NCBI RefSeq assembly: GCF_006345805.1
Contig: NW_021828958.1
Coordinates: forward strand, 1-7,120
DNA: 7,120 nt
Origin: Octopus sinensis
Taxonomy: Eukaryota
Direction of reading: 5' to 3'
A program made the translations under genes and the position numbers. The first letter of the stretch is position 1; the number at the start of each line of letters is the position of its first letter. The notes below the pieces were generated by a model. That model was given only the letters and a program-made list of their open reading frames with translations. It made no database searches and was not told where the DNA came from. Shown in pieces: positions 1,266-1,372 of the stretch.

Positions 1266-1372
1266 GAGGAGCTTCTACAGGACTAGTACTGTTTCATTCA
1301 AAGAAATCTTCAGGAAGATTTCTCTTGAATGAAAACAGTACTAGTCCTGTAGAGAGCTCCTTCTATATAATA
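1257..1372. repeat. Near-perfect 116-bp inverted repeat (palindrome) with 2-nt spacer
   Basis: Arm 1257-1311 is the reverse complement of 1314-1372 apart from four single-base indels. The centre is TCTTC-AG-GAAGA. Confidence 0.95.
1272..1317 (-). ncRNA. Type I hammerhead ribozyme motif
   Basis: Minus strand: CTTC (stem I) CTGAAGA (core) T-TTC-TTT-GAA-T (stem II) GAAA (core) CAG-TACTAGTC-CTG (stem III) TA (GUA cleavage triplet) GAAG (stem I'). All conserved core nucleotides are present and all three helices pair. Stem II is short and closed by U-U. Confidence 0.75.

Follow-up and report, generated by a model that had tools for sequence, protein, structure and literature searches.

A Hammerhead Motif in Octopus sinensis Lies in a Promoterless, Head-to-Head Insertion of a Probable Penelope-Like Element

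Results and Discussion

The Hammerhead Motif and Its Surroundings

The window, i.e., the whole 7120-nucleotide stretch of Octopus sinensis DNA that was analyzed (contig NW_021828958.1), includes a type I hammerhead motif on its minus strand. A near-perfect 115-bp palindrome (1258–1372, centered at 1312–1313) has this motif as one of its arms. The element to which it belongs extends to position 1443 via a 70-nt tail, and the whole set is located in (TA)n. The features are, from left to right:

1196–1265, no strand: left (TA)n target tract, overlapping the AT-rich end of the tail-less arm (compare the flanks of sister copies)
1258–1313, minus strand: tail-less arm, comprising the hammerhead from C3, the 3′ strand of stem I and the AAUAAA region, then merging into (TA)n
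1272–1317, minus strand: type I hammerhead motif with a 4-bp stem I, U10.1-U11.1, a 3-bp stem II, and a 4-bp stem III with an 8-nt loop
1275–1276, minus strand: predicted cleavage site after GUA, from the hammerhead consensus
1308–1317, no strand: head-to-head junction, a 4-nt CTTC/GAAG microhomology flanking a 2-nt spacer (1312–1313)
1314–1373, plus strand: tail-bearing arm, a hammerhead without C3 and U4 and with two 1-nt insertions, aligned to the natural pLTR in locus L272
1374–1443, plus strand: 70-nt tail, equal to the 5′ UTR up to the ORF start in full-length tandem copies
1444–1473, no strand: right (TA)n target tract

The arms are joined via GAAG/CTTC inside the hammerhead core. The tail-less arm retains CUGAAGA and has a 1-nt loss in loop II, and the tail-bearing arm includes a degenerate AATAAA at 1369–1373. 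No TATA box is present in this short insertion, referred to below as the stump.

A previous sequence-only reading had identified the hammerhead, and the letters of the minus strand from 1317 to 1272 are identical to those quoted there. A type I descriptor recognized the CUGANGA/GAAA/UH core in this motif and in no other place in the window, while 500 dinucleotide shuffles of the window produced three matches in total. The cleavage point predicted between 1276 and 1275, after GUA, is rightly placed according to the hammerhead consensus. An Rfam search, which had been proposed as a check, did not recover the motif: no hammerhead model matched the window, and the 67 matches at E ≤ 10 were to hairpin-type miRNA models only, below the gathering score. 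Two details of the earlier description apply to this copy and not to the family at large. The 4-bp stem I of the window copy results from truncation of the arm at the junction; in the parent context stem I is AGCUUC/GAAGCU (6 bp), with a stem II of 3 bp and a stem III of 4 bp. The ACUAGU palindrome in loop III is present here, but it characterizes a minority subfamily only (11 of 87 copies); 75 of the 87 copies have a U at the place that decides the palindrome, leaving CUAG alone.

The folding of the locus was then modeled. The palindrome has a minimum free energy of −74.9 kcal/mol (z = −15.7), and none of 200 shuffles was equally stable. The 46-nt motif alone folds less stably than its own shuffles (z = +1.46), and its hammerhead fold scores −0.4 kcal/mol. 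The predicted outcome is a −75 kcal/mol hairpin that sequesters the window hammerhead. In any transcript across the stump, the arms are predicted to pair, and the hammerhead copy on the plus strand would be devoid of C3-U4. In a minus-strand transcript the complementary arm would be made before the ribozyme and therefore, judging from the fold energies, hammerhead folding is unlikely. The window copy is a promoterless, head-to-head, extremely 5′-truncated insertion, and these models suggest that it is likely inactive. The sequence-only reading had made two proposals. That a mobile element carries here a type I hammerhead derived from a Penelope-like pLTR stands; that the motif is a working self-cleaving module of a small element does not. 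The latter fails because the copy is a promoterless, 5′-truncated stump of a 5–6 kb RT/GIY-YIG element and its complementary arm is predicted to block folding.

Other repeats were observed in the window. Positions 5259–5297 of the minus strand, part of an element at about 5180–5360, are a second hammerhead-like end that belongs to another repeat. It consists of a 4-bp stem I, a CUGUCGA core (U for A6), an inserted A, a 4-bp stem II, GAAA, CG, and UA. By its sequence it looks like a minimal hammerhead of Penelope-like elements (PLEs) with a core variant, and no motif with the CUGUCGA core was found among the papers listed by a literature search. A repeat end of this kind, related but degraded, occupies 990–1195 (minus strand), directly to the left of the (TA)n tract. 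A 34-bp minisatellite (29.6 copies, 94% matches) is located at 2210–3197. The plus strand at 6667–7120 contains broken frames that we take to resemble the N-terminus of a mariner-type transposase; Pfam gave weak HTH matches only (E 0.04–0.1) in this region.

Copies of the Family and the Parent Element

A DNA search of the genome (2.72 Gb) yielded 80 matches from 40 scored candidates. The full hammerhead core has 5442 exact matches in the genome, and a core-free pattern has 3208. A pattern with a non-palindromic base before CUUC had 2380 exact matches, and that base was G in 100 of 100 among the matches listed. The 30 loci that were read share a common plan, namely (TA)n, arm, 2-nt spacer, arm, fixed tail, (TA)n. 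The assembly carries many 1-nt indels. The element's end was also detected in runs X15, X18, and X20, which are labelled as three other organisms (B, C, and D), in contigs mostly 95–100% alike. Aligned contigs revealed neither joints nor an accumulation of ends, and by their nature they carry no information on starts, strand, or level.

Variation in the hammerhead was assessed in 87 non-redundant copies, a sample partly biased by the fetching patterns. All five recurrent variable columns are at N7, loop II (three columns), or loop III (one column), an outcome with a chance of 0.001, and the same five columns vary in 30 loci fetched with the core-free pattern. The stems show no recurrent change across the family. 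Doubletons were present at two core positions among 100 core-free matches listed (G8>T twice and H17 A>G twice). Preferential conservation of the core and compensatory stem changes had been named as signs of a functional ribozyme. Subfamily variation does spare the core and the stems, but no compensatory stem change was found in the 87 copies. Divergent subfamilies were sought as a source of covariation, and the 20 low-identity ORF matches turned out to be damaged copies of the same subfamilies.

The arrangement of the copies argues against a retrozyme: the first 100 core matches listed include one tandem versus 35 divergent neighbor pairs. The cores were at most 20 nt apart in 16 of these 35 pairs, and none were 18–150 nt apart. 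A MITE with terminal inverted repeats was considered and rejected, as the arms range from about 50 bp to 3.6 kb and continue into an ORF.

The long divergent pairs are inverted repeats with arms of up to 3.6 kb that reach this ORF, and such long copies link the hammerhead to a reverse transcriptase (RT) plus C-terminal GIY-YIG coding region. The ORF was found at 152 places among 150 scored candidates. It is a single ORF with a telomerase-like RT followed by the C-terminal GIY-YIG. The 652-amino acid frame in L090 includes the RT motifs, DKT, a CxCX5C linker, no CCHH, and CxxC and CxH around E and N; near the N-terminus, RWR occupies the place where Hydra elements have RWK. The protein has 802 homologues at E ≤ 1e-20, its structure model has a pLDDT of 83.8 with TERT as the top fold match (E 2.6e-8), and its atlas neighbors carry, in part, GIY-YIG and RVT_1. 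Searches of the ORF against Pfam and PDB sequences gave no RT or GIY-YIG match. The motifs, matched by eye to the published alignment, suggest that the element is a new family in the Hydra clade. Broken frames of a different Penelope-like RT adjoin an octopus-family copy in L094 (559–2493, minus strand).

The 5′ ends of the ORF were preceded by hammerhead, AATAAA, tail, and ATG in 17 of 30 cases, which corresponds to a partial tandem of pLTRs; therefore, the tail is the 5′ UTR of the next tandem unit. Targeting of (TA)n was apparent from the tail ends, 101 of 128 of which run into ATATATAT and 13 of 128 into the ORF leader. The 3′ UTR reaches 3–3.9 kb in the youngest subfamily. Among the subfamilies compared (L090, L095, L101, L092, and L132), it measures about 0.3 kb in L092 and 1.1 kb in L132, and simple sequence rich in TA/CA, which the element carries within it, fills the 3′ UTRs.

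The Junction Boundary

The insertions share the anatomy described above, with one tail-bearing and one tail-less arm each, and their junctions cluster where stem I begins. The AGCT in the 5′ strand of stem I is the site of a perfect join at 493 loci, compared with 9 loci for the AGCT that immediately follows the cleavage site. The boundary was located more precisely in 114 arms sampled on C1, from stretches chosen so as to enrich short pairs. TATAAA or CATAAA precedes the A of AGCUUC by 29 nt in 37 of 41 long arms and by 28 nt in the other 4. A TATA box is usually found about 30 nt before the transcription start. The remaining 73 arms, split by eye, comprise 67 that end at or inside AGCUUC, 3 long arms with a damaged box, and 3 that end 15–30 nt upstream.

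The short junctions showed the same limit. None of the 84 arms in 42 short junctions extends past the A of stem I by three native bases, and at least 24 different junction strings occur among the 42. The junction homology is that of stem I itself in 8 of 30 inspected loci. Extra letters are present in a small number of cases; in 6 of 7, the letter before a complete AGCTTC is G, and L336 adds two letters other than G. An extra G, templated by the cap, marks capped full-length L1 insertions according to the available portions of two reports (PMC11702581, PMC9341517).

A genomic footprint of cleavage was also sought and rejected, because ends at the cleavage site are not enriched. Forty-seven copies have a base other than G after GUA. 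Of these, 30 were inspected: in 5, stem I is missing its 3′ strand from that point on, and the rest have point changes; all 5, including L098, show TA or TGTA microhomology. Similarly, 42 copies have a base other than A before the 3′ product, and most of the 30 inspected are point changes or stem I joins. Since ends at the cleavage site are not enriched, the templates appear to have been uncleaved, as described for Poseidon in vitro in the accessible text of PMC11167929. The sequences around the boundary suggest that the element RNA likely starts at the first base of the ribozyme and serves as a template for DNA synthesis without being cut. In many full-length copies the hammerhead is preceded by 3′ UTR; together with the arms that end 15–30 nt upstream, these copies indicate that longer read-through templates exist too. 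In a single case, a 218-nt direct duplication in L098 (3513–3949), the first unit ends exactly at the GUA site, with TA microhomology.

Origin of the Insertions

Every one of the 91 non-redundant divergent pairs examined has one arm with the tail and one without. In 30 longer pairs, the longer arm was the tail-bearing one in 15 and the tail-less one in 9, with 6 ambiguous cases. Both arms share the subfamily diagnostic variants in 42 of 43 short pairs. The orientation of the 2-nt spacer relative to the tail differs from locus to locus: in 52 tailed stumps with the spacer of the window copy, which include a few duplicates, 31 have its own orientation and 21 the reverse (p = 0.21 against 1:1). 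The junction recurs across subfamilies and the spacer occurs in both orientations; therefore, the stumps were made anew each time.

These data led us to propose that the stump is probably a head-to-head insertion, in its shortest form, of a young Hydra-clade PLE, formed from two joined cDNAs in a (TA)n tract. Two cDNAs are inferred because a single cDNA folding back cannot yield a longer tail-less arm. This origin agrees with the two start sites and the extension on two strands observed in vitro, as reported in the part of PMC11167929 that was available.

The same element could generate the hot spot in a different manner, if stem I acted as a structural stop or as the point where a single cDNA folds back and primes its own copying. 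The palindromes at inverted PLE junctions have been interpreted as the product of self-priming (PMC3846280, in its accessible sections), and the 8 loci joined through stem I homology would fit a fold-back. Nonetheless, copy-back from a single cDNA cannot explain the longer tail-less arms (9 of the 24 resolved pairs) or the spacer orientation of the window (31 of 52), and the boundary is sharp to one base and lies at a fixed distance from the TATA box across subfamilies. We regard this explanation as unlikely. Even less credence can be given to single-cDNA insertions with a center that was later inverted by recombination between the arms or flipped in the assembly. Perfect palindromes do recombine and misassemble, and the assembly has the abundant 1-nt indels mentioned above, but "flipped" loci do not become proportionally rarer as the arms lengthen (31 of 52 at about 55 bp, 9 of 24 with longer arms), and the fixed boundary and the extra junction letters would be left without an explanation. 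A self-propagating hammerhead mini-element, retrozyme or MITE-like, with a ribozyme that cleaves in the window copy, is also highly improbable and already largely refuted: the full core, the exact window junction common to 52 loci, and a loop III self-dimer predicted at −17.2 kcal/mol for the window's subfamily speak for it, but they are opposed by the energies of hairpin and hammerhead fold (−74.9 versus −0.4 kcal/mol), the missing TATA box, the variety of junction strings, the spacer in both orientations, the same junction across subfamilies, and the single tandem pair in the first 100 matches listed.

In the preferred pathway, insertion from two cDNAs, the TATA box of the pLTR would direct transcription to begin at the A of AGCUUC, where stem I opens. 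The protein encoded by the element would nick both strands of a TA tract; one cDNA would start at the end of the tail and another just past AAUAAA. Synthesis of each cDNA would proceed across a ribozyme that had not been cleaved and end by run-off at the capped 5′ terminus, after which a short stretch of homology would let the two cDNAs anneal; this stretch is usually AGCT but is GAAG/CTTC in the window copy. In intact elements the ribozyme, with predicted activity, may remove a capped leader of 45 nt or trim the RNA that results from tandem read-through. A more specific version of this pathway, to which we assign roughly even chances, is that a ribozyme at the first transcribed base acts as a decapping brake on the mRNA, while cDNAs primed on opposite strands run off capped uncleaved RNA and are joined. 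If this were true, symmetric twin reverse transcription would explain both the inverted pLTR and the one-sided tail of PLEs.

A hammerhead is by itself expected in Hydra-clade PLEs and the window copy seems to be a dead stump; the value of the locus is in the junction data of its family. The origin of PLE inverted pLTRs and one-sided tails and the role of the hammerhead are open questions, according to the available text of PMC8557442 and PMC11167929. With its thousands of young copies, a junction boundary defined to one base below a TATA box, and the 493:9 contrast, the family provides in vivo constraints. In addition, the perfect hairpins would be substrates as dsRNA if they were transcribed.

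Comparison with Known Systems

Part of what was observed here is already published, as can be seen in the accessible portions of the articles: PLE hammerheads (PMC4209133), and Hydra-clade hammerheads and one-sided tails (PMC8557442). A start site inside the pLTR is known for Penelope. Our literature search, which left Repbase and most subscription journals outside its reach, found no paper on the octopus family or on a PLE start at the first base of stem I.

The Hydra-clade PLEs, including Hydra-1_Obim (Craig et al. 2021, PMC8557442), have, in the sections available, the same C-terminal GIY-YIG, DKT, and CxCX5C linker, no CCHH, the same CxxC and CxH flanking E and N, and (TA)n targets. Their hammerheads (File S2 of the same article) are canonical and have the same layout, U10.1-U11.1, and an ACAG/CUGU stem III, and several Hydra families have hammerheads with cleavage after A. 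Four motifs from the hammerhead and protein of the octopus family had no match in the accessible part of that supplement. In comparison with the Hydra elements described in those sections, the octopus family has RWR for RWK, an 8-nt loop III, thousands of young copies, a 70-nt instead of a 30–40-nt tail, and a 3′ UTR of up to 3.9 kb, which exceeds theirs.

PLE insertions with inverted pLTRs (Arkhipova 2013, PMC3846280; Frangieh 2024, PMC11167929) show, in the available accounts, the same head-to-head copy, a tail at one end, a palindrome at the junction, two RT start sites, and an uncleaved template. In vitro, a Poseidon PLE initiated at two internal sites, extended both strands of the target, and used uncleaved RNA (PMC11167929, same portion). 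The octopus family differs from these accounts in that its junction maps to a single base, the one that opens stem I and follows a TATA box by 29 nt, and in that either arm may be longer. Two cDNAs with a sense template account for this pattern better than the antisense self-priming put forward in 2013, as the accessible text of PMC3846280 presents it.

The minimal hammerheads of PLEs and non-LTR retrozymes, as far as the available parts of two reports describe them (Cervera and de la Pena 2014, PMC4209133; bioRxiv 10.64898/2026.07.22.740005), are the same pLTR-derived type I hammerhead, and pairs on opposite strands were noted there in Schistosoma. Unlike minimal hammerheads and retrozymes, the octopus family is not found in tandem arrays and shows no sign of its own propagation. 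Its hammerhead need not dimerize because stem III has 4 bp.

Finally, L1 twin priming and inverted joins (PMC11702581, available sections) resemble the octopus insertions in the priming at both target ends, the microhomology joining, and the extra G at full-length 5′ ends. In L1, however, the second cDNA is primed internally and the two arms cover non-overlapping segments, whereas the octopus family has two fixed starts from which one and the same 3′ segment is copied into both arms.
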